The translations under genes and the position numbers were made by a program. The notes under the pieces were generated by a model. That model was not told where the DNA came from. It did no database searches and worked only from the letters and a program-made list of their open reading frames with translations. Below, one piece after another: positions 32,563-48,919 of a stretch of DNA of 64,000 bases. Every line of letters begins with the position of its first letter. The first letter of the stretch is position 1. Where the stretch lies: positions 256,001 to 320,000 of the forward strand of contig CAWKDB010000002.1 of NCBI GenBank assembly GCA_963848295.1, in the 5' to 3' direction. This DNA comes from an uncultured delta proteobacterium. GTDB taxonomy: Bacteria; Myxococcota_A; Polyangia; Haliangiales; Haliangiaceae.

Positions 32563-32634
32563 GGGCGCTTAACTCAGCGGGAGAGTGGTTCCTTCACACG
32601 GAACAAGTCGCAGGTTCAATCCCTGCAGCGCCCA
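32563..32634 (+). tRNA. tRNA-Val, anticodon CAC (CCA not encoded)
   Basis: Cloverleaf: acceptor GGGCGCT/AGCGCCC, D stem ACTC/GAGT, anticodon stem GTTCC/GGAAC with loop TTCACAC, T arm GCAGG-TTCAATC-CCTGC, discriminator A. Confidence 0.96.
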
Positions 32635-32645
32635 CGATTTTTCGT

Positions 32646-39339: not shown

Positions 39340-40413
39340 ATGACGCGCGTCGCGGCGAACGCGCCGTACGATGGGATCATGCGCGTCGAATACCTCTCGA
39401 GGGGATCCCTCGTGTCGCAGTCCACCTATACCCACGAGCTGCGTCCAGCGCTGCCCGCGGAGGCGTTCGAGCCGGCCACTTCACGACTCGCGTTCGTGCC
39501 GGCCCATGTCGCGGTCATCGCGATGGCCACGATCGCGATCGCCGCTCACTGGGTTCCGTGGCCGCTCGTGCCGCTGCTCTCGCTCGCGATCGGCATCAGC
39601 TTCGCGTGCTTGACCTTCGTCGGGCACGAGACCGTGCATGGCGGGATCGTCCGAGGGCATCGCATCCGGCAGCTCGTCGCCTGGGTGTGCTTCTTGCCGT
39701 TCACGCTGTCGCCTCGGCTGTGGGCGGCGTGGCACGACCGCGTCCACCACGCGAACGCGAACCTCGCCGAGGATCCCGACATGTATCCGACCCTCGCGGA
39801 GTACCGCGGCAGCGGCAAGATCCGGTTCGTGGTGAACGCGTTCTCGCTCGGCGGCAGGCGCTGGCGCGGCGGGCTCAGCTTGATCCTCGGCTTCACCGTC
39901 CAGAGCGCTCATCAGCTGATCGACGCACGGCGATTCCTGAAGCCGCGCGCGTTCAAGGTCGCGCTGGCCGAGACCCTCGCCGGCGTCGCGTTATGGGCGA
40001 CGGTCGCGGCGCTCGTCGGGTTCGTCCCGTTCTTGTTCGTGTTCGTCCTGCCGTTGGTGGTCGCGAACGTGATCGTGATGTCGTTCATCCTGACGAACCA
40101 CGGGTTGAGCCCACGGGTCGAGATCAATGATCCCCTCGCCAGCGGGCTCAGCGTGACCGCGCCGCGCTGGATCGAGTGGCTGACGTTGAACTTCGGCTAT
40201 CACGTCGAGCACCATCTGTTTCCCGCGATGAGCTCGCGCCACGCGCGTCGCGTGAGGGATGGCCTGCGGCTGCGCTGGCCACTCCGCTACAAGTCGATGC
40301 CGCTCGGGGCCGCGCTCGCCGAGTTGCATCGCACCGCGCGCGTTTACAAGGACGCGACCACGCTCGTCGATCCGCGGACCGGCCGCGAGTTCGCGACGCT
40401 GATGCCCGGCTAG
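39340..40413 (+). CDS. Membrane fatty acid desaturase (start uncertain)
   Basis: Three histidine boxes HETVH, HDRVHH, HVEHH and TM segments. Confidence 0.92.
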   Translation: MTRVAANAPYDGIMRVEYLSRGSLVSQSTYTHELRPALPAEAFEPATSRLAFVPAHVAVIAMATIAIAAHWVPWPLVPLLSLAIGISFACLTFVGHETVHGGIVRGHRIRQLVAWVCFLPFTLSPRLWAAWHDRVHHANANLAEDPDMYPTLAEYRGSGKIRFVVNAFSLGGRRWRGGLSLILGFTVQSAHQLIDARRFLKPRAFKVALAETLAGVALWATVAALVGFVPFLFVFVLPLVVANVIVMSFILTNHGLSPRVEINDPLASGLSVTAPRWIEWLTLNFGYHVEHHLFPAMSSRHARRVRDGLRLRWPLRYKSMPLGAALAELHRTARVYKDATTLVDPRTGREFATLMPG

Positions 40414-40456
40414 CCGACGGTGCGACTCCCGCGATCCTGATACCGTCCGTTGAGTC

Positions 40457-40933
40457 ATGGCCGAGCAGAATGAGCTCATCGAGCTCGAGATCGCAGCGTT
40501 CCAGGGCCCGCACATCAAGCGCGCCCGGATGGTCCTCGCGGCCACCGGCGTGCTCTACGTGATCCTCGGCTACCTCGACTACGGCGACATCGCGAAGGCG
40601 CGCGAGCGCGTGCACACCCTCACCGCCGCCGGGGTAGACCTCGGCGACGCCCCGCACCTGGTCAACATGGCGCTGGCGGTCGCGGTGGCGGCGGTCGCCG
40701 GTGGTATCGCCAATGTCGCGCTCGCCGTGCTCGGCGGCACGAAGACGATGATCGTGTTCTACGTGGCCGCGGCGATCTTCATCGGGCAGTCGGCGCTCAA
40801 CCTCTACGTCTCGGGCGGCGCGATGCTGACGAGCTTGCTGTGGTGGCTGATCGCGATCGTCCTCGGTATGGGGTTCATGGCCGCGTTCAAAGCCGAGCAG
40901 CTGCGCAAGCGCCCGGTTCCTGCCCGAGGTTAG
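40457..40933 (+). CDS. Hypothetical membrane protein (about 4 TM)
   Basis: 158 aa with four hydrophobic segments. Confidence 0.8.
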   Translation: MAEQNELIELEIAAFQGPHIKRARMVLAATGVLYVILGYLDYGDIAKARERVHTLTAAGVDLGDAPHLVNMALAVAVAAVAGGIANVALAVLGGTKTMIVFYVAAAIFIGQSALNLYVSGGAMLTSLLWWLIAIVLGMGFMAAFKAEQLRKRPVPARG

Positions 40934-41010
40934 CGTCGAGGTGAGGGTCCTTGCCTTCATTGCCGTACAAGCTCACTGACCACTCGGGCGGTTGACGCTC
41001 TTGTTCGATC

Positions 41011-42267
41011 ATGGATGATCGAACGATGGTCGAGAACGACAGCGCCTTCGCCGCAACGGTCGCGCCGAGCTCCGATTCGCCGGCGATGCTGGCCGAGACG
41101 CATGCGACGCTCGCTCAGGGGTCGACCGCGGGGTTGGCGCTGTCCATGCGGTCGACGGTGTTGCCGCGGGGGACGGTTGGCGATCTCCGCGTCGAGGCGC
41201 CACCAGCGGCGCAGCGGTTCGTGCCGGTTCGCCTGCTCGGCATCGGCGGGATCGGCGAGGTGACGTTGGTCCAGGACCACGACATCGATCGACCCGTCGC
41301 GCTCAAGCGGCTTCGTCCCGAAGCGAGCTCCCCCGAGCTCGTCCATCGGTTCGCGCAAGAGATCCGCACCGTCGGCCAGCTCGAACATCCGAACATCGCG
41401 CCGGTTCATGACGTCGGCATCGACGACGAAGGTCACCACTACTTCGTGATGCGCTACGTCGAAGGCGAAACGCTCGAGCACATCATCGCCAAGCTCGCCG
41501 CGGGCGACCCCGCGTATCACGCGCGCTTCCCGTTCGAGCACCGCACACAGGTCTTCCTGGGCGTGTTGAATGCGATCGCCTACGCGCACGGCAAGCAGAT
41601 CCTCCACCGTGACATCAAGCCATCGAACATCATGGTCGGCCCTTACGGCGAGGTCGTGGTCATGGACTGGGGCATCGCGAAGAAGAAGACCGCCGAGGAG
41701 ATGGCCGGTCCGCACGCGGACTCGCAGATCGACGGCGAGACGCGGGCGCAGTTGTTTCGCACCCGCCATGGATCACTCATCGGCACCCCGGCGTACATGT
41801 CACCGGAGCAGGCGCAGGGCGCGACCGATCGCATCGACGAGCGCAGCGATATCTACGCGCTGTGTGTCGTGCTCTACGAGCTCCTCACGCTCCAGCACTA
41901 CCTGCCGGAGCGCACGACCATGGCACACATGCTCGCCTCGATCGCAGACGACGAGCATGTGAGCGCAGCCTTTGTGCCCAACCGGCATCAGACCCCGGTG
42001 CCGGCGGAGCTCAGTTGGTTCATCGAGAAGGGACTCGAGAAGCCACCGGGTGCGCGTTACCAGACGGTGACCGAGATGATCACGAGGCTCGAGCATGCGA
42101 TGGCCGGCCTGTTCCCGGTGCAGTGCCCGGTCACATTCCTCAAGACGGTCGGCGGTCGCGGCGTGCGCTTCGTCGATCGCCATCCGATCGTCTCGATGGT
42201 CGGGACGCCGGCCGCGGCCGGTCTGATGATCTTCGGCTTGGTCGAGCTCGTGCTCAAGCTCGTCTAG
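41011..42267 (+). CDS. Ser/Thr protein kinase with C-terminal TM
   Basis: LGIGGIGEV, VALK, HRDIKPSN, DWG, GTPAYMSPEQ. Confidence 0.93.
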   Translation: MDDRTMVENDSAFAATVAPSSDSPAMLAETHATLAQGSTAGLALSMRSTVLPRGTVGDLRVEAPPAAQRFVPVRLLGIGGIGEVTLVQDHDIDRPVALKRLRPEASSPELVHRFAQEIRTVGQLEHPNIAPVHDVGIDDEGHHYFVMRYVEGETLEHIIAKLAAGDPAYHARFPFEHRTQVFLGVLNAIAYAHGKQILHRDIKPSNIMVGPYGEVVVMDWGIAKKKTAEEMAGPHADSQIDGETRAQLFRTRHGSLIGTPAYMSPEQAQGATDRIDERSDIYALCVVLYELLTLQHYLPERTTMAHMLASIADDEHVSAAFVPNRHQTPVPAELSWFIEKGLEKPPGARYQTVTEMITRLEHAMAGLFPVQCPVTFLKTVGGRGVRFVDRHPIVSMVGTPAAAGLMIFGLVELVLKLV

Positions 42268-42271
42268 GCGC

Positions 42272-43030
42272 TCAGCGAATCGCGACGCGGGGAAGGGTCA
42301 GGTAATGCGTGTCGCTCTTCGGGTCGCCGAGGCGTTGGCGATAGCCCTCGCGGTGGATCGAGTGCGTGTTGACATCGGGCAAGCGCAGCGCGACGTCCTC
42401 CGACGTCGGCGCGAGTGGACCGCGGCGGACCAAGCTCGCATACGCCTCTTTCGCGCCGGCGAGCTCGCCGGTCGTCCGACCTCGTGCGGTAGCCGCGGCC
42501 TCGACCTGGGGCTCGAGCGCGAACCACTTGGCCTGCGCCTTCGCGAGCTGGCCGCGATACCCGGCGGTGTCGTAGGTGTCGCTGCCGAGCAGGTGGTGAT
42601 CGATGGCCTTCGCTCGCTCGAGCTCGCGCTCGCTGCGTAAGACCTCGAGCTGAGCGGTCAGGAATTCGCCGCGCAGCTCGCGCCACGCGAGGTCGGCGCG
42701 GCGGACCGCGACAGTCGCGCTATCGATCTGCGTGATCGCCGCGGCCTTGCGGCGCTCTTGGCCCTCGATCGCGGCGGCCCAGCTGTCGCCCGGCGCGGCG
42801 GGCGTGACGTCGGGGTGGTGCACCGCGGGCAGCGCGAGCATGCGGCGGTCCTCCGCGGTCGCGAGAACGATCGCGTAGAGCTCGCCTTCGGTCTGCGCGA
42901 CCTTCGCATCGTGCGCGCGATCGAGAGACGCGCGTTCCGCGGCAGGCACGGTCTGCCAATCCGCGAGTGGAACGCTCGTAAACCCAGCACAACCCGTCAA
43001 GACAAGTGCGACGAGATGGAATCCCCTCAT
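42272..43030 (-). CDS. Helical/coiled-coil lipoprotein
   Basis: MRGFHLVALVLTGC lipobox; Ala/Glu/Arg-rich helices. Confidence 0.7.
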   Translation of the reverse strand: MRGFHLVALVLTGCAGFTSVPLADWQTVPAAERASLDRAHDAKVAQTEGELYAIVLATAEDRRMLALPAVHHPDVTPAAPGDSWAAAIEGQERRKAAAITQIDSATVAVRRADLAWRELRGEFLTAQLEVLRSERELERAKAIDHHLLGSDTYDTAGYRGQLAKAQAKWFALEPQVEAAATARGRTTGELAGAKEAYASLVRRGPLAPTSEDVALRLPDVNTHSIHREGYRQRLGDPKSDTHYLTLPRVAIR

Positions 43031-43160
43031 CGTCCGATCGTGCAACGGTTTGCCGCGCGCGTCAGTAGTGCAGCCTGCAAGAAATCGTGAGCCCGAAGTG
43101 AGCGCGTACTGTCGCGCATGCGCGTACAGGTGCGTGCGCGTGAGCGCCCCGATGTCGCTG

Positions 43161-43568
43161 CTAACCCTGTTCGACGGGCTTGCCGGCTTTCACCCAGCCC
43201 GCGATCCCGGCCGGCATGATGTAGACGTCGGTGTAACCCAGCTTTTCCGCCGCGACCGCGGCGGTATGGCAGGCGTGTCAACTCTCGTTGTGACAGTAGA
43301 AGATCAACGTCGCGGCCTTATCGGGGGCGAGATCGCCAGCCTTGATGTCCTCGTCGTCGACCCACTTCGCCCCCGGCACGTGCGCCTTCTGCCAGACCTC
43401 TCTTGGATTGGCGTCGTAGAGGAACGTCTTGCCGTCTTTCGCGGCGATGCGCGTCGCGACCTGATCGACGGTCAGCGGCCGGAGCTCGTGTGGACCGCCG
43501 GCCGCGGTGTCCTTCGCGCAACCGACGAGCGCCACGGTGATGAGGATCAACAGCGAGCGGCGTTGCAT
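43161..43568 (-). CDS. Rhodanese-like lipoprotein, predicted selenoprotein (Sec97; UGA at 43278-43280)
   Basis: LVGC lipobox; YDAN..HVPGAKWV..LIFYCHNES-UGA-HACHTAAVAAEKLGYTDVYIMPAGIAGWVKAGKPVEQG-TAG; the post-UGA frame completes the rhodanese C-terminal signature. Confidence 0.88.
43247..43264 (-). promoter_or_regulatory. Bacterial SECIS-like hairpin
   Basis: mRNA CCGCCGC-GGUC-GCGGCGG; stem begins after a 13-nt spacer and loop after 20 nt from the UGA. Confidence 0.75.
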
Positions 43569-43605
43569 GGGTGACAGGCTAGCTCGTTCTTCGCGGTAGC
43601 GCGAG

Positions 43606-44640
43606 CTACGGATCGAAGTCACCGCCGCACACCGTCATGTCGTACGCGACCGGCAACCCGGTGCTCCCGTCGTAGGCGCCGACCCAGATCCAGTACTTCG
43701 TGCTCGGTAGCACCGCGAACGTATTGAACTCGTCCTCGGTCAACGACGTGAGCGTCGCGGTCGCGGTCGCGATCGTCTGGTTCTCCTGGAACACGACGTA
43801 GTCGAGATCGGCCGTCGCGCCCGGCCAGTTGAGCCGGACCGACAGCTCGTTCGCGCGCTCGCCGGTCGTGATCTCGTAGGTGTCGCGGTCGAGGTACTTG
43901 TCGCTGCCCGCGGCGACCGAGCCGCTCGATCCCGAGAGGTGTACGCTCTTGTTGCGGTCGACGGTCAGCCCGGTCGGCTCGGCGGCGTCATCGGCCGGGG
44001 TCAGCGTGAATGGCGTCGTCTGGCTGAAGTCGACGAGCATCACGTCGTTGCCGGTATTCGTCGCGGTGTCGAGCGCCTCGACGTAGTCCGGCATCGGCAC
44101 GCCGGTCGAATCGGGGCAGCGGTTCGTCGGCTGATCGGTGACCAACCGCACTTTGTACGGGATCGGCGCCGCGACGTCGGCGGTGCCGGTCGCGGTCACG
44201 ACGACCTCGTAGTTGCCGGCGTCGAGCTCGGCGAGAAACGCACCGTGATCGCCGAGCGTCGGGTCGAGCGTGCCGGCGTTCTCCAGCACCGGGTTTGGCG
44301 AGCTGTCGAAGATCTCGACCTTGAAGCCGGTGAGGCCGGTCGGCTGTGCGTTGTTGAACTGGATCAGCAGCTCGGCCGGGCTCGCGGGAATCGCGAGTTG
44401 ATACGTATCGACGTCCACCGTCCCCGACGCTGCGCTGAAGTGTCCCGAGTCGACTTGGCCGCAGATCGTCCGCGTCACGTCGACGGTGAGCCCGGTCGCC
44501 TCGAGCATCGTCGCGTTCGTCGCGTCGGACAGCTCGGTGTAGTCGCACTCGGGCAACGCGTCGACGTAGGCATCGCTACCTGCGCCACCTCCGCACGCAG
44601 CGAGCCCGACGAACGCAACGGCCACAGGGATGCGCATCAT
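43606..44640 (-). CDS. Acidic lipoprotein with two PPC-like beta domains
   Basis: LAAC lipobox; DVDTYQL and DRDTYEI, LSVRLNW..ADLDYVV, YWIWVGAYDG. Confidence 0.75.
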   Translation of the reverse strand: MMRIPVAVAFVGLAACGGGAGSDAYVDALPECDYTELSDATNATMLEATGLTVDVTRTICGQVDSGHFSAASGTVDVDTYQLAIPASPAELLIQFNNAQPTGLTGFKVEIFDSSPNPVLENAGTLDPTLGDHGAFLAELDAGNYEVVVTATGTADVAAPIPYKVRLVTDQPTNRCPDSTGVPMPDYVEALDTATNTGNDVMLVDFSQTTPFTLTPADDAAEPTGLTVDRNKSVHLSGSSGSVAAGSDKYLDRDTYEITTGERANELSVRLNWPGATADLDYVVFQENQTIATATATLTSLTEDEFNTFAVLPSTKYWIWVGAYDGSTGLPVAYDMTVCGGDFDP

Positions 44641-44888
44641 CATCCCTACTCGCGTACAAGGCGAACGCCCGCGGCGCAAGCTCTGATCGCAAACTGATCG
44701 TTAGCAGGCGATGCGCACGCGCGTCAGGGTCGACGAATTTGCCCGGTGCTGCCACGACGTCGTGATGTGACTTCAAGGCGTGCTGCACGTACATCTCGGG
44801 ACGATCGCGAAACGTTAACGCCTGTGACCAGTCCGTCTGTTACCGTTACCGCCTGGCCGTGATCCACTAGCAGTTGTCGGAGGACACG

Positions 44889-46490
44889 ATGTCGAATCGA
44901 TTGGGCTGGCTCGCGCTCGCGGTGGCTACGGGATGCACGACGCAAGACCCGACCTCGGGCGAACGCACCAAGGTGCAGTATGGATCGCAGCTCGGCGCGC
45001 CGGCGCCGCCGCAGACGTTCGTGCCGCTGACAAACCAACCGGAGTTTGCGGCGAACCTCTCGCTCGTGTTGCCCGACGGCACCGTGATGTCGCAGGACAC
45101 CGATGCAGGCGACTGGTGGCGGCTGACGCCGGACCTCACCGGCAGCTACATCAACGGCACGTGGACCGAGCTCGCGTCGCTGCCGGATGGTTACTCGCCG
45201 TTGTATTACGCCTCCGCAGTGCTGCCCGACGGCCGCGTGATCGTCGAAGGCGGCGAGTACAACGGCGGCGGCGAGGGCGTGTGGACCACGCTCGGCGCGA
45301 TCTACGACCCCGCGATGGATCAATGGACGTCGGTAGACCCGCCGACCGGCTGGGGCACGATCGGCGATGCGCAGAGCGTCGTACTCGCCGATGGCCGGTT
45401 CATGATGGCCGACTGCTGCACGACCAACGAGGCGATCCTCGACGCGACCAGCTTGACCTGGACGCCGACCGGCACCGGCAAGGAAGACATCAACGACGAA
45501 GAAGGCTGGACGCTGTTGCCCGACAACACGCTGTTGACCGTCGACGCGACGAACGGCGGCAAGCCGATGGAGTCGGAGAACTACGACCCGACGACCGGCA
45601 CGTGGTCGAGCCTCGGCGATACGCCGGTGCTGCTCGCCGATCCGGGCTCGAGCGAGCTCGGCCCCGCGGTGCTGCGCCCGAACGGCACCGTGATCGCGAC
45701 CGGCGCGACCGGGCACAACGCGGTCTACGACACCGCGACCAAGACGTGGACCGCGGCGCCTGACTTCCCGATCGTCGCCGGCGGTCAGCTCGATATCGCC
45801 GACGGCCCGGGCGCGTTGATGCCGAACGGCAACGTGCTGTTCGCCGCGAGCCCCGGCGTGTTCGGCAACGGCGTCGTGTTCTTCGAGTGGGATGGCACGG
45901 CGTTCAACATGGTCGACGGCCCCGACTTCGCGCCCGATCTCACGTCGTATCAATGCAACCTGTTGCCGCTGCCGAGCGGCGAGATCATGTTCACCTCGCA
46001 ATCCTCGGACGTCGAGATCTACGAGCCGGTGCCGCCGGCCGACACGAGCGCGTTCCAACCGGTGGTCACCGCGGTGCCGGTGCTCGAGGGCACCACCGGG
46101 CTGACCGGGCGCGAGATCGCGAACACGCGCAGCGTCGAGCACCACGCGGCGACCAGCGGGCTGTCGCCGTATCAACTGCCGCTGATGACGATCTACACCG
46201 GCCACACGTACACGGTGAGCGGCACGCGCCTCAACGGCGTATCGCAAGGGGCGGCGTACGGCGACGACGGCCAAGCCTCGACGGCGTTCCCGCTCGTCCG
46301 GTTCACGAACATGACGACCGGGCACGTCCAGTACGCGCGCACGCACGACGGCAGCAACTTCGCGATCGCTCCGACGACGACCGGCTCGACGCACGTCGAT
46401 GTCCCGGCCGGCATCGAAGGCGGACTCGCGAAGCTGGAAGTAGTCGCGAGCGGCGTCGCGTCGCCGGGATTGCTCGTCAACGTGAAGTGA
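44889..46490 (+). CDS. Kelch-repeat (galactose oxidase-like propeller) lipoprotein
   Basis: ATGC lipobox; repeats VLPDGTV, VLPDGRVIVEGG..IYDP..WT, LLPDNTL..YDPTTGTWS, LMPNGNVL. Confidence 0.85.
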   Translation: MSNRLGWLALAVATGCTTQDPTSGERTKVQYGSQLGAPAPPQTFVPLTNQPEFAANLSLVLPDGTVMSQDTDAGDWWRLTPDLTGSYINGTWTELASLPDGYSPLYYASAVLPDGRVIVEGGEYNGGGEGVWTTLGAIYDPAMDQWTSVDPPTGWGTIGDAQSVVLADGRFMMADCCTTNEAILDATSLTWTPTGTGKEDINDEEGWTLLPDNTLLTVDATNGGKPMESENYDPTTGTWSSLGDTPVLLADPGSSELGPAVLRPNGTVIATGATGHNAVYDTATKTWTAAPDFPIVAGGQLDIADGPGALMPNGNVLFAASPGVFGNGVVFFEWDGTAFNMVDGPDFAPDLTSYQCNLLPLPSGEIMFTSQSSDVEIYEPVPPADTSAFQPVVTAVPVLEGTTGLTGREIANTRSVEHHAATSGLSPYQLPLMTIYTGHTYTVSGTRLNGVSQGAAYGDDGQASTAFPLVRFTNMTTGHVQYARTHDGSNFAIAPTTTGSTHVDVPAGIEGGLAKLEVVASGVASPGLLVNVK

Positions 46491-48919
46491 GAGAGCGCGC
46501 GGTCATCGCGGTCGTCGCGCTAGTCTCCCTCGGGGCGTGCCACGGCACGATCGCGGCCTCGCACGATGCGGGCGACGCGGCGATCGACGCGAGCTCGGAC
46601 GCCGCGCCCGGCATCGTGACGATCACGTCGACCCGCGACAGCGCTCGGTTCGTCACGCGCGAGCACATGCTCGCCGCGGGCGAGATGCAGATCTCCGGCG
46701 AGCCGCTCGCGCAGGCGATGGGGCGCGACCTGACGGCGTATAGCCGCGACCAGATTCCGCCGAACCTCTACAACGATCCGGCGCTCGGCATCCTGTGGAT
46801 CGATCTGACCGGGTTCTCGACCGCCGTCGAGTCGTACGAGTATTCGAAGCAGCCGATGAACAACCTCGCGTTCGAAGGCGGGGCCGGCACCTCGCTCGCG
46901 TATGCGCCGCTGGTCGATACCGATGCCGCGATCGGCGCCGGCGCGACCGCGCACCTCGCCGCGCTCGTCCAGCACTACGCGGTCGGCAGCGACGCCGCCG
47001 GCATCTTCGTGTTCCCGCCCGGCACGTTCCCCGCCGCGAACCCGATCGGCGACGTCAACCCGACCGGCGCGGGCACGGGCGCCGAGAACCCGGTCGGCTG
47101 GCCGGGGATCTGGCCCACGACTCACGTGTTCGCGAGCTTCGACCCGACGATCGATCCGACGAGCCAGATCGCGCTGTTGTGCTCGATAAGCTCGGACGAC
47201 GATCCGCACGACCTCGGCACGCTGCAGTGCGCGGACTACGAGTGCGACGCGACGACGTTGCACCTCCGCGATCGCGCGAGTCAGATCGACTCGACGATCA
47301 CGCCGGGCGCCGACGGGTTCTCGGCCTGGAAGTACGGGCTGTGGTCGCTGAACTACTTGCAGGTCATGCACGACAGCAACGAAGCGGCGGTCGCGAGCGT
47401 CGCCGATGCGGATCTCGCGACGGTCGGAACCGCCGGCAACGGGATCGTGGGGCTCGACGCGAACGGCATGCCGACCACGCCCGGGACGTTCCTCGGCTCG
47501 AGCCGGATCGAAGGCCTGCAAGCGCAGATGATGATCGTCGAGATCGACAGCCGCGCCGACGACTGGATCTCGCGGCTGACGACGAGCGATGGCACGTCGC
47601 TGTCGGGCTTCGCATCGATCGAGGATGCGCTCGCCTACAACTACAGCTCGCCGTTGCGCTGGTTCCCCGGCGCGATCGCGGTGACCGAGCAACCGGGCGG
47701 CGACTTTCCGATGCCGAGCTACGCGTTGGCGTCTCCGGACAGCACCGCGCTCGATCTGATCGGGCTCGCGATGGGCTACGCCGAGTTCTTCTCGCTGACC
47801 GACACGGCGAATCGCGATGTCGGCGGTGCGCAGGCCGCTCGCGCCTACTTCGACGGCGATCCGTTCCCGGCCGACGATCAGCTCGCCGACGGCGAACCGA
47901 CCCTGCACGACCGCGCGCTCGCGATGATCCGAGTCGCCGTCGTCGACCTCGATCGGCTGCACACCGATCCGGCGACCGGCCTGTTGGTCGATGAGGTCGC
48001 GATGACGGGCGCGACGCCGAGCCGCGGTCACACGCTGTCGACGACGACCGCGGCCTACGCGATCATCGGGTTGCGCACGATCGGGCGCGCCCTGAGCTCG
48101 CAGCTCGAGCTGTACTCGAACAACACGCCCGACGACGCGATCACGACGACGCCGCTCGACCCGCTCGCGCTCGATGATCCCGGTGCGGCGGTGACGTTCG
48201 GCGGCCGGGTCACCCAGATGCTGCGCGCGCACGCCGATTTGCTGCTCGATCACCTCACCGACGCGACCGGTCGCGCCTACGACGGCTGGGACGTCACGAC
48301 CGGCGCGCCGATCGACCATCAAGACCTGCTCGATGCCCACACGGCCGCGATCCGCGGGCTGTTCGCCGCGTACCTCGCGACCGGCGACACCCGTTACCGC
48401 GATCGCGCGCTCGCCGTGTTCGACCGCATGCAGGCGACGTTCTACGACCCGACCGCGCGGATCTATTCGGCGACGCCTTTCCCGGTCGACGACGTCACGT
48501 TCACGCCGCTGCGCTTCGCGCTGCTGCAGAGCGCGCTGCGCGATGTCTACGAGCTGATCGCGTCGCGTCCCGGCCACGAGCCGATGGAGCCGGAGGTCGA
48601 AGCGCTGATCGCTCGGCTCGACAAGCTCGTGCTCGACGGCTGGGATGACCGCAATCAGAACCGCGAGGTCGATTGGCCGAGCGAATGTACGAACGTCGAC
48701 GTGCGCGGTGTGCCGCAAGGCGGCCTGCAGATGGCGGAGCGCACGCTGACCGGCGAGATCGGCAGCTACGACGAACGGCTCGAGCCCGGTGACCCGCGGA
48801 TCCCGACGTTCGACCGCGACGAGGACTGCGTCTCGGAGATCGACGATGTCCACCTGCCGTCCGCGCTCGCCGACTCGGTGACGTTCCACATCGCGCGGAG
48901 CGCAGGCCGGGGGCCGTGA
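46487..48919 (+). CDS. Large acidic lipoprotein with C-terminal (alpha/alpha)-toroid-like segment
   Basis: GTGA overlap; LGAC lipobox; AIRGLFAAYLATGDTRYRDRALAVFD..FYDP resembles six-hairpin glycosidase repeats. Confidence 0.75.
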   Translation: MRERAVIAVVALVSLGACHGTIAASHDAGDAAIDASSDAAPGIVTITSTRDSARFVTREHMLAAGEMQISGEPLAQAMGRDLTAYSRDQIPPNLYNDPALGILWIDLTGFSTAVESYEYSKQPMNNLAFEGGAGTSLAYAPLVDTDAAIGAGATAHLAALVQHYAVGSDAAGIFVFPPGTFPAANPIGDVNPTGAGTGAENPVGWPGIWPTTHVFASFDPTIDPTSQIALLCSISSDDDPHDLGTLQCADYECDATTLHLRDRASQIDSTITPGADGFSAWKYGLWSLNYLQVMHDSNEAAVASVADADLATVGTAGNGIVGLDANGMPTTPGTFLGSSRIEGLQAQMMIVEIDSRADDWISRLTTSDGTSLSGFASIEDALAYNYSSPLRWFPGAIAVTEQPGGDFPMPSYALASPDSTALDLIGLAMGYAEFFSLTDTANRDVGGAQAARAYFDGDPFPADDQLADGEPTLHDRALAMIRVAVVDLDRLHTDPATGLLVDEVAMTGATPSRGHTLSTTTAAYAIIGLRTIGRALSSQLELYSNNTPDDAITTTPLDPLALDDPGAAVTFGGRVTQMLRAHADLLLDHLTDATGRAYDGWDVTTGAPIDHQDLLDAHTAAIRGLFAAYLATGDTRYRDRALAVFDRMQATFYDPTARIYSATPFPVDDVTFTPLRFALLQSALRDVYELIASRPGHEPMEPEVEALIARLDKLVLDGWDDRNQNREVDWPSECTNVDVRGVPQGGLQMAERTLTGEIGSYDERLEPGDPRIPTFDRDEDCVSEIDDVHLPSALADSVTFHIARSAGRGP

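Follow-up and report, generated by a model that had tools for sequence, protein, structure and literature searches.

A single-domain rhodanese of a Haliangiaceae genome with a very likely selenocysteine at an in-frame UGA

Rhodanese-like selenoproteins were already on record, as the initial annotation of the present locus had stated. A 2026 selenoprotein catalogue lists five rhodanese forms and treats different selenocysteine (Sec) motifs as separate subfamilies (PMC13188914). Form 1 is entered in its Table 1 under PF00581, with the motif UxxS and the Geobacter protein WP_010941598.1 as representative (PMC13188914). According to supplements 1 and 3 of a further publication, all nine 'rhodanese-like' entries and the form 1 representative have Sec at C-x4-U (PMC12013277). 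BSepDB comprises 57,630 entries, which were identified by similarity. No activity of a C-x4-U rhodanese is described in the literature consulted, and the search returned no paper on GSU0930. For bacterial SECIS (bSECIS) elements, the catalogue text gives as consensus a loop of 3-9 nt with a G within its initial two nucleotides, a stem of 4-16 bp, a spacing of 16-37 nt, and an energy of -7.5 kcal/mol or lower (PMC13188914).

The gene described here lies in a stretch of 64,000 nucleotides (the window) from an uncultured delta proteobacterium of the Haliangiaceae, whose genome amounts to 7.78 Mb and is 85% complete. On the minus strand, an ORF runs from an ATG at 43568 to an in-frame TGA at 43280-43278 (codon 97) and, beyond it, through 38 open codons to a TAG at 43163-43161. 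The initial annotation had described an ORF that stops at YCHNES-TGA while its frame continues for 38 codons, and the re-derived coordinates agree with this. The database entry for the window's own protein is a 96-aa truncated product, just as had been expected of standard annotation. With read-through, the Pfam Rhodanese score rises from 26.9 to 51.6 bits and the profile becomes complete, which bears out the earlier statement that the continuation completes the rhodanese fold, and the motif reads C92-HNES-U97-HA-C100-H. The features of the locus are as follows (window coordinates, strand, feature, basis).

43161..43568, minus strand: full coding sequence, 135 aa with TGA97 taken as Sec, plus the TAG stop (sequence, Pfam, database protein record)
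43518..43568, minus strand: predicted signal peptide with the lipobox L-V-G-C17 at its end (sequence; lipobox pattern match)
43188..43466, minus strand: rhodanese domain PF00581, aa 35-127 (Pfam; AlphaFold2 model; fold matches)
43407..43415, minus strand: D52-x-N54, invariant in the family (75-sequence alignment)
43293..43295, minus strand: Cys92, canonical rhodanese catalytic position (62/62 TGA loci, 22/22 Cys loci)
43278..43280, minus strand: in-frame TGA, codon 97, predicted Sec (homologue column TGA/Cys)
43266..43271, minus strand: Cys100-His101, completing U-x2-C-H (residue counts, 62 TGA loci)
43247..43264, minus strand: predicted bacterial SECIS, 7-bp stem, -14.1 kcal/mol (folding; locus comparison)
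43257-43254, minus strand: GGUC loop of the predicted SECIS (folding)

The hairpin, CCGCCGC-GGUC-GCGGCGG with a perfect 7-bp stem, is located at 43264-43247 on the minus strand, with the 5' arm beginning 13 nt, and the loop 20 nt, past the UGA. A perfect 7-bp stem with a GGUC loop 20 nt after the UGA had been claimed and was confirmed, the 20 nt being the distance to the loop. The accompanying reference to the GGUC of Escherichia coli fdhF was equally correct, and that loop lies 18 nt past its UGA. In both genes the UGA is followed by CACG and GGUC sits at the hairpin tip, whereas the fdhF stem is bulged and its loop stands at 18 nt, compared with the perfect 7-bp stem and 20 nt of the window gene. 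The bSECIS rules of the catalogue (PMC13188914) were applied through our own script rather than bSECISearch, and the window hairpin falls within them, with GGUC as a 4-nt loop, a stem of 7 bp, a spacing of 20 nt and an energy of -14.1 kcal/mol.

Two features that might be taken as proof were rejected as such. The stability of the hairpin is non-significant against shuffles (z from +0.96 to -1.39), and an open downstream frame of at least 38 codons follows 611 of the 1164 long TGA-ending ORFs in this GC-rich genome. Of the same 1164 ORFs, 202 are followed by a SECIS-like hairpin with an energy of -7.5 kcal/mol or lower. A coding-like open continuation (score 0.2 or more) is found after just 17 of them, the coding score past TGA97 being 0.33 against a 99th percentile of 0.26, and just 3 are followed by a hairpin that reaches -14.1 kcal/mol and places its loop at 19-22 nt. 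The window gene combines the two. Taken singly, the open frame or the hairpin is no better than chance; jointly, they beat it. Among 34 genome-wide TGA candidates the window gene ranks second, and the candidate ranked first resembles two adjacent genes.

The protein search found 140 homologues, and the counts given here come from the 120 that were listed, the window's own 96-aa product included. Ninety-seven of these stop 3-4 residues past the catalytic Cys, as judged from protein records in which the stop codons themselves were not read, and the remaining 23 run through, all of them with Cys at +5. The nearest named records carry the title Kofleriaceae (91% and 62% identity), and an Atlas look-up with a Cys homologue yielded generic rhodanese clusters, for the most part from Myxococcota. 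At the DNA level, 90 loci were compared, comprising the best search matches, two loci of the window's own genome, 20 hand-picked no-stop regions and 20 hand-picked TGA regions; 5 duplicates were dropped, leaving 85 distinct loci. The column of codon 97 holds TGA in 62 loci (47 genomes), Cys in 22 and Arg in one distant paralogue, a ratio that is not to be read as a frequency because the loci were partly hand-picked. The expectation that homologues would show either TGA or Cys at this column thus held nearly throughout, and failed for the Arg paralogue and for the catalogue protein P0273, which has Gly there. We would guess that this Gly is a single-base error in a read-assembled catalogue.

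The frame past the TGA is open for 35-44 codons in the 62 loci, and for 38 codons in 48 of them, the same as in the Cys forms. A qualifying hairpin follows 61 of the 62 TGA loci versus 2 of the 23 other loci, with its loop exactly 20 nt past the UGA in 60 TGA loci; when the three TGA loci of the unpublished genomes G010 and G123 are set aside, the count is 58 of 59. In a further set of 40 loci, our own pattern recognised 39 motifs in 37 loci, two of them repeats of loci already counted. The hairpin follows 7 of 7 TGA motifs in this set versus 3 of the 32 with Cys, and two other families supply five of these seven. A survey of the phylum gave matches in 57 of 251 genomes, with TGA in 8 among the matches listed. 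At +3, 50 of the 62 TGA loci have Cys and 12 have Ser, and at +4 all 62 have His. The Cys100 position is also Ser in 20 of the 22 Cys loci, so Cys100 is not essential.

A sequencing error at TGA97 was considered and ruled out, since 62 distinct loci keep TGA at the same column. One public contig spans TGA97 with 0 differences and may be the source sample itself, and the contig X4, from a second study, reaches TGA97 just ~30 nt from the contig end. A look-up of RNA data sets listed none with the gene, which speaks neither for nor against its expression. No U residue appears in 270 checked proteins, in whose records U may go undisplayed. In the hand-picked set, 11 genomes contain both a TGA and a non-TGA locus. 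The window's genome has an intact Cys paralogue of its own, a putative C-x4-C-x2-S-H lipoprotein (G000:C10:1001037-1001360, L049), which has no qualifying hairpin.

Purifying selection acts on the frame past the TGA. For the 15 GGUC-loop loci, pN/pS amounts to 0.41 ahead of the TGA and to 0.28 beyond the hairpin; GC3 is 0.91 past the UGA. Synonymous divergence in the same loci is 0.21 in the stem-loop versus 0.46 and 0.40 outside it, and the Gly codons of the second hairpin type are fixed (GGC 45/45, GGG 43/43). Double-sided changes from C-G to U-A occur at two pairs of the GGUC type (6 cells, 13 distinct sequences) and at three pairs of the second type (25 cells, 46 sequences). For both types these cell counts were reached in 0 of 500 shuffles and the pair counts in 47 and 49 of 500, and the shuffles overstate the signal because related sequences are not independent. 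At least three hairpin forms were observed, namely GGUC at 20 nt, CGGGC, CGUGC or CGUGA at 20 nt, and CGUGU or CGGGU at 21 nt (L014, L101, L112, L138-L140); in every one of them the loop has G as its second nucleotide. The hairpin appears to dictate the encoded residues, which are TAAVAA or AGAGRA in the hairpin-bearing genes versus EAAxKA in the Cys forms.

A check of the genome for selA, selB, selC and selD, as the initial annotation had proposed, found selA (528 against a cut-off of 268), selB (294 against 242), selD (326 against 125) and tRNA-Sec (67 bits against 47), all above curated cut-offs. The presence of selA was rejected as a discriminator and does not single out the TGA carriers, because 110 of the 121 family genomes have it. 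The two TGA carriers that gave no selA match, the fragmented genomes G123 (unpublished) and G147, do contain tRNA-Sec and selB. In the window's genome, 1164 of 2234 long ORFs end in TGA, more than in any other stop, and genome-wide recoding is thereby ruled out. SelD of this genome is the Cys form, and neither FdhA nor a YeeE/YedE thiosulfate transporter was found in the 85%-complete sequence. Two DsbD-plus-thioredoxin genes are present elsewhere in the genome.

The same genome carries a second likely selenoprotein gene, which encodes an AhpC/TSA (Prx-like) domain with W-U-P-W-C (TGA near 807164, minus strand, G000:C10; L148:477-1400). It matches the catalogued Prx-like UxxC family, its C-terminal extension has no Pfam match, and its hairpin (-10.0 kcal/mol) has the loop at 21 nt. 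This gene, with its hairpin, provides an internal control.

Taken together, UGA97 is very likely decoded as selenocysteine. This had been the central proposal of the initial annotation, and it is supported by the TGA/Cys column, the hairpin in 61 of 62 TGA loci, the covariation, the selection on the downstream frame and the Sec machinery.

Known lipobox and Tat patterns were used to judge the N-terminus. The signal peptide begins with an RR-x-hydrophobic pattern, L-V-G-C17 forms the end of the hydrophobic stretch at the protein N-terminus, and Tat export of the protein from its RR start is possible. Our lipobox pattern is matched by 71 of the 97 truncated homologues, and most of the others have, by eye, the look of a cleavable signal. 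An RR-x-hydrophobic-hydrophobic start (43568-43545 in the window) is seen in 54 of the 97 truncated homologues versus 0 of the 23 full-length Cys homologues; other Sec clades do without it, and it may be either a clade trait or a Tat signal.

The family comprises putative lipoprotein, cleavable-signal and signal-less clades, and TGA forms occur in each, so the chemistry is not tied to a lipid anchor. Members of the signal-less clade (L025, from the unpublished genome G010, L026, L057, L059, L066 and others) are ~108 aa long, read C-SGPG-U-HS-C-H, and have another hairpin register with a CGGGC loop. Two Cys members, L065 and L068, nest in this clade and have no 20-nt hairpin. In 14 of 45 loci, two upstream genes are shared, one of which looks by eye like a dCMP deaminase. 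Tandem two-domain Cys relatives (L143, L144, P0121-P0124) have the C-x4-C loop in each domain. A quick tree (108 columns, hairpin-shaped codons included) needs three Sec/Cys changes; it is unrooted and gives no direction.

No conserved neighbours of the window's clade were found among the 45 loci, most of which had flanks of ~1.5 kb, and gene context therefore names no substrate. The flanking same-strand ORFs (43606-44679, minus, 357 aa; 42272-43045, minus, 257 aa) are lipoprotein-like, are common to the closest relative only, and have no Pfam or NCBIfam match. The further surroundings in the window are ordinary: a fatty-acid desaturase (39340-40413), a Ser/Thr kinase (41011-42267), a Kelch-repeat protein (44874-46490) and a tRNA-Val (32563-32635). 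No promoter-like site was found at the gene, one terminator-like site is at chance level, and the region 40000-47000 of the window has no Rfam match.

An AlphaFold2 model was built from a 75-sequence alignment with Cys in place of Sec (mean pLDDT 91.8) and replaced a single-sequence fold (pLDDT 61.5). In this model, Cys92 follows a strand, residue 97 stands at the end of the loop and Cys100 lies in the first turn of a helix, while two helices and one strand lie past the TGA. The top structural matches, among the matches listed, are rhodanese folds. The first of them, BH2092 of Bacillus halodurans (PDB 3nhv, 3o3w), aligns over 116 residues in VIA (Z 16.7, rmsd 5.3) and with a TM of ~0.8 and an rmsd of ~1.5 in Foldseek, and its C-x4-C loop is aligned gap-free with that of the window protein. 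This loop is two residues longer in both proteins than in the other solved rhodaneses aligned. BH2092 differs in sharing ~21% identity with the window protein, in having Cys only, and in having Ala at +3; no literature on it was found. In the alignment with solved rhodaneses, Cys92 shares a column with their YC/HC cysteine. The protein thus bears the mark of the single-domain sulfurtransferases of the GlpE/PspE type, a rhodanese fold whose loop has Cys at the canonical place, while the GlpE and PspE models score 17.5 and 16.6 against cut-offs of 102. The PDB relatives aligned have D-x-R or similar where the window family has D52-x-N54.

On these grounds, the gene product is probably an exported, likely periplasmic and selenol-assisted sulfur transferase or reductase, built as a likely lipid-anchored, 135-aa single-domain rhodanese with Sec97. 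Established Sec biology suggests that SelB would bind the hairpin and deliver Sec-tRNA at UGA97. With rhodanese persulfide chemistry and thioredoxin geometry as background, Cys92 may take over a sulfane sulfur, with polysulfide, thiosulfate or a persulfide as the donor. Sec97, which closes a loop that exceeds the usual length by two residues, would attack this sulfur to form an Se-S bond. Cys100, placed in the first helix turn as in the thioredoxin U-x2-C motif, may then resolve the bond where it is present, and a DsbD-type system would likely re-reduce the protein. The DsbD step is proposed because TsoB is a rhodanese/DsbD fusion and two DsbD genes exist in the genome, rather than from gene context. 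Speculatively, the Cys-only paralogue of the same genome might cover for the protein when selenium is short.

The same residues could instead make the protein a thioredoxin-like peroxide or disulfide oxidoreductase on a rhodanese fold, with U97-x2-C100 as the redox pair and no sulfane sulfur involved, although this seems unlikely. The modelled U-x2-C motif at a helix start, the fusion of TsoB to DsbD and the invariant D-x-N, which is unlike usual rhodaneses, would suit such an enzyme, and U-x2-C and U-x2-S alternate among clades as they do in catalogued thiol-oxidoreductase selenoproteins. Against it, Cys92 at the sulfurtransferase position is invariant and the fold is that of a plain rhodanese.

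Rather less probable is a periplasmic site for soft metals or metalloids (Hg, Cu, Zn, As(III)), formed by Cys92, Sec97, Cys100 and His101, serving binding or detoxification. Three chalcogen residues do fall within nine positions, His101 is kept in 62 of 62 TGA loci, and some catalogued selenoproteins handle metals. However, 183 of the 220 motifs in the best 150 of 17782 profile matches have Cys at +5, and the third ligand of these C-x4-C motifs from distant relatives, at +8, is Ser in 128 cases as compared with Ala in 28 and Cys in 11. No metal-resistance gene was recognisable by eye in the neighbour clusters printed, and the loop is without the C-x5-R that characterises the rhodanese-fold arsenate reductases.

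It is very improbable that U-H-A-C-H is a selenium version of the CxxCH haem c site, with the haem of an exported rhodanese held by a selenoether and a thioether. UxxCH occurs in 50 of the 62 TGA loci, CxxCH in several exported Cys relatives, and predicted export would take the protein to the compartment where haem c gets attached; yet UxxSH and CxxSH are common, the signal-less clade retains UxxCH, and the model is a compact rhodanese with no cytochrome among the fold matches listed. The search found no literature on a 'UXXCH' haem linkage through a selenoether. Finally, although the truncated database annotation, the Gly of P0273 and the intact Cys paralogue would fit a TGA that is a real stop, a sequencing error or another residue (Trp, Gly, Cys), hence a truncated gene or one recoded without selenium, this is hardly credible in view of the 62 loci in 47 genomes that keep TGA with a full-length frame and a positioned hairpin, the purifying selection past the TGA, the ordinary use of TGA to end 1164 of 2234 long ORFs, and the two helices and one strand of the model that a stop after residue 96 would cut off the fold.

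With UGA97 read as Sec, a large and systematically truncated selenoprotein subfamily is added to the soil myxobacteria. Small redox proteins like this one may, speculatively, be among the reasons why the Sec trait is kept, a thought prompted by the Cys form of SelD and the lack of an FdhA match in the 85%-complete genome. The soluble domain of the window protein counts 119 residues, U/C and C/S variants of it occur naturally, in exported and signal-less versions, and the fdhF-like SECIS of this gene might work in E. coli; together these would give a convenient handle on the role of Sec when it sits away from the canonical place in the rhodanese loop. For selenoprotein specialists, the family is a solid addition and less a surprise. 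The subfamily was not found in print in the literature search, and the similarity entries of BSepDB may already include it.

In comparison with the described families, no NCBIfam model reaches its cut-off on the window protein. The best NCBIfam match is TsoB (NF045694; form 5, UxxxxU), with 41.5 bits over aa 67-134 on profile positions 92-158. The two share the four-residue spacing between two chalcogen residues, the match of columns being inferred from that spacing. However, the window protein is far below the TsoB cut-off of 805, and TsoB covers 572 positions with a DsbD part and two Sec, whereas the window gene has one TGA and no DsbD fusion. Rhodanese_LYCAU (NF041203; form 3, CxU) is likewise a short exported single-domain rhodanese selenoprotein, but it has Sec at C+2 instead of C+5, and the window protein scores 31.4 against its cut-off of 115. 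Forms 2 and 4 (UxxG) are also rhodanese selenoproteins, form 2 differing in that its Sec occupies the catalytic position itself rather than C+5.

Form 1 comes closest. Like the window protein, it belongs to PF00581 and, in all 9 listed sequences, places Sec five residues past the canonical Cys, at the same column; the post-Sec segments are similar by eye, and its members have N-terminal export signals, two of them lipobox-like. The same sequences are multi-domain proteins of ~260-480 aa, in contrast to the one domain and 135 aa of the window protein, and a search for longer forms of the latter gave just 6 distant matches (24-37% identity). At U+3, the listed form 1 sequences have Ser, Tyr or Ala and never Cys, where the window protein has U-x2-C-H, and upstream they mostly have D-x-R where it has D-x-N. 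The UxxS of form 1 is thus absent from the window protein (UxxC), and is present in 12 of its 62 TGA relatives. The hosts of the listed form 1 sequences point to sulfur- or metal-reducing anaerobes, as distinct from the Kofleriaceae-like Myxococcota of the window. The Sec column C-x4-U itself is already catalogued as form 1, and the window protein, judged by sequence, is form 1-like in its Sec position and departs from form 1 in the UxxS motif and the multi-domain architecture. What sets the present case apart is the stand-alone single domain, the U-x2-C-H and D-x-N motifs, and a large Myxococcota family that is truncated in databases.
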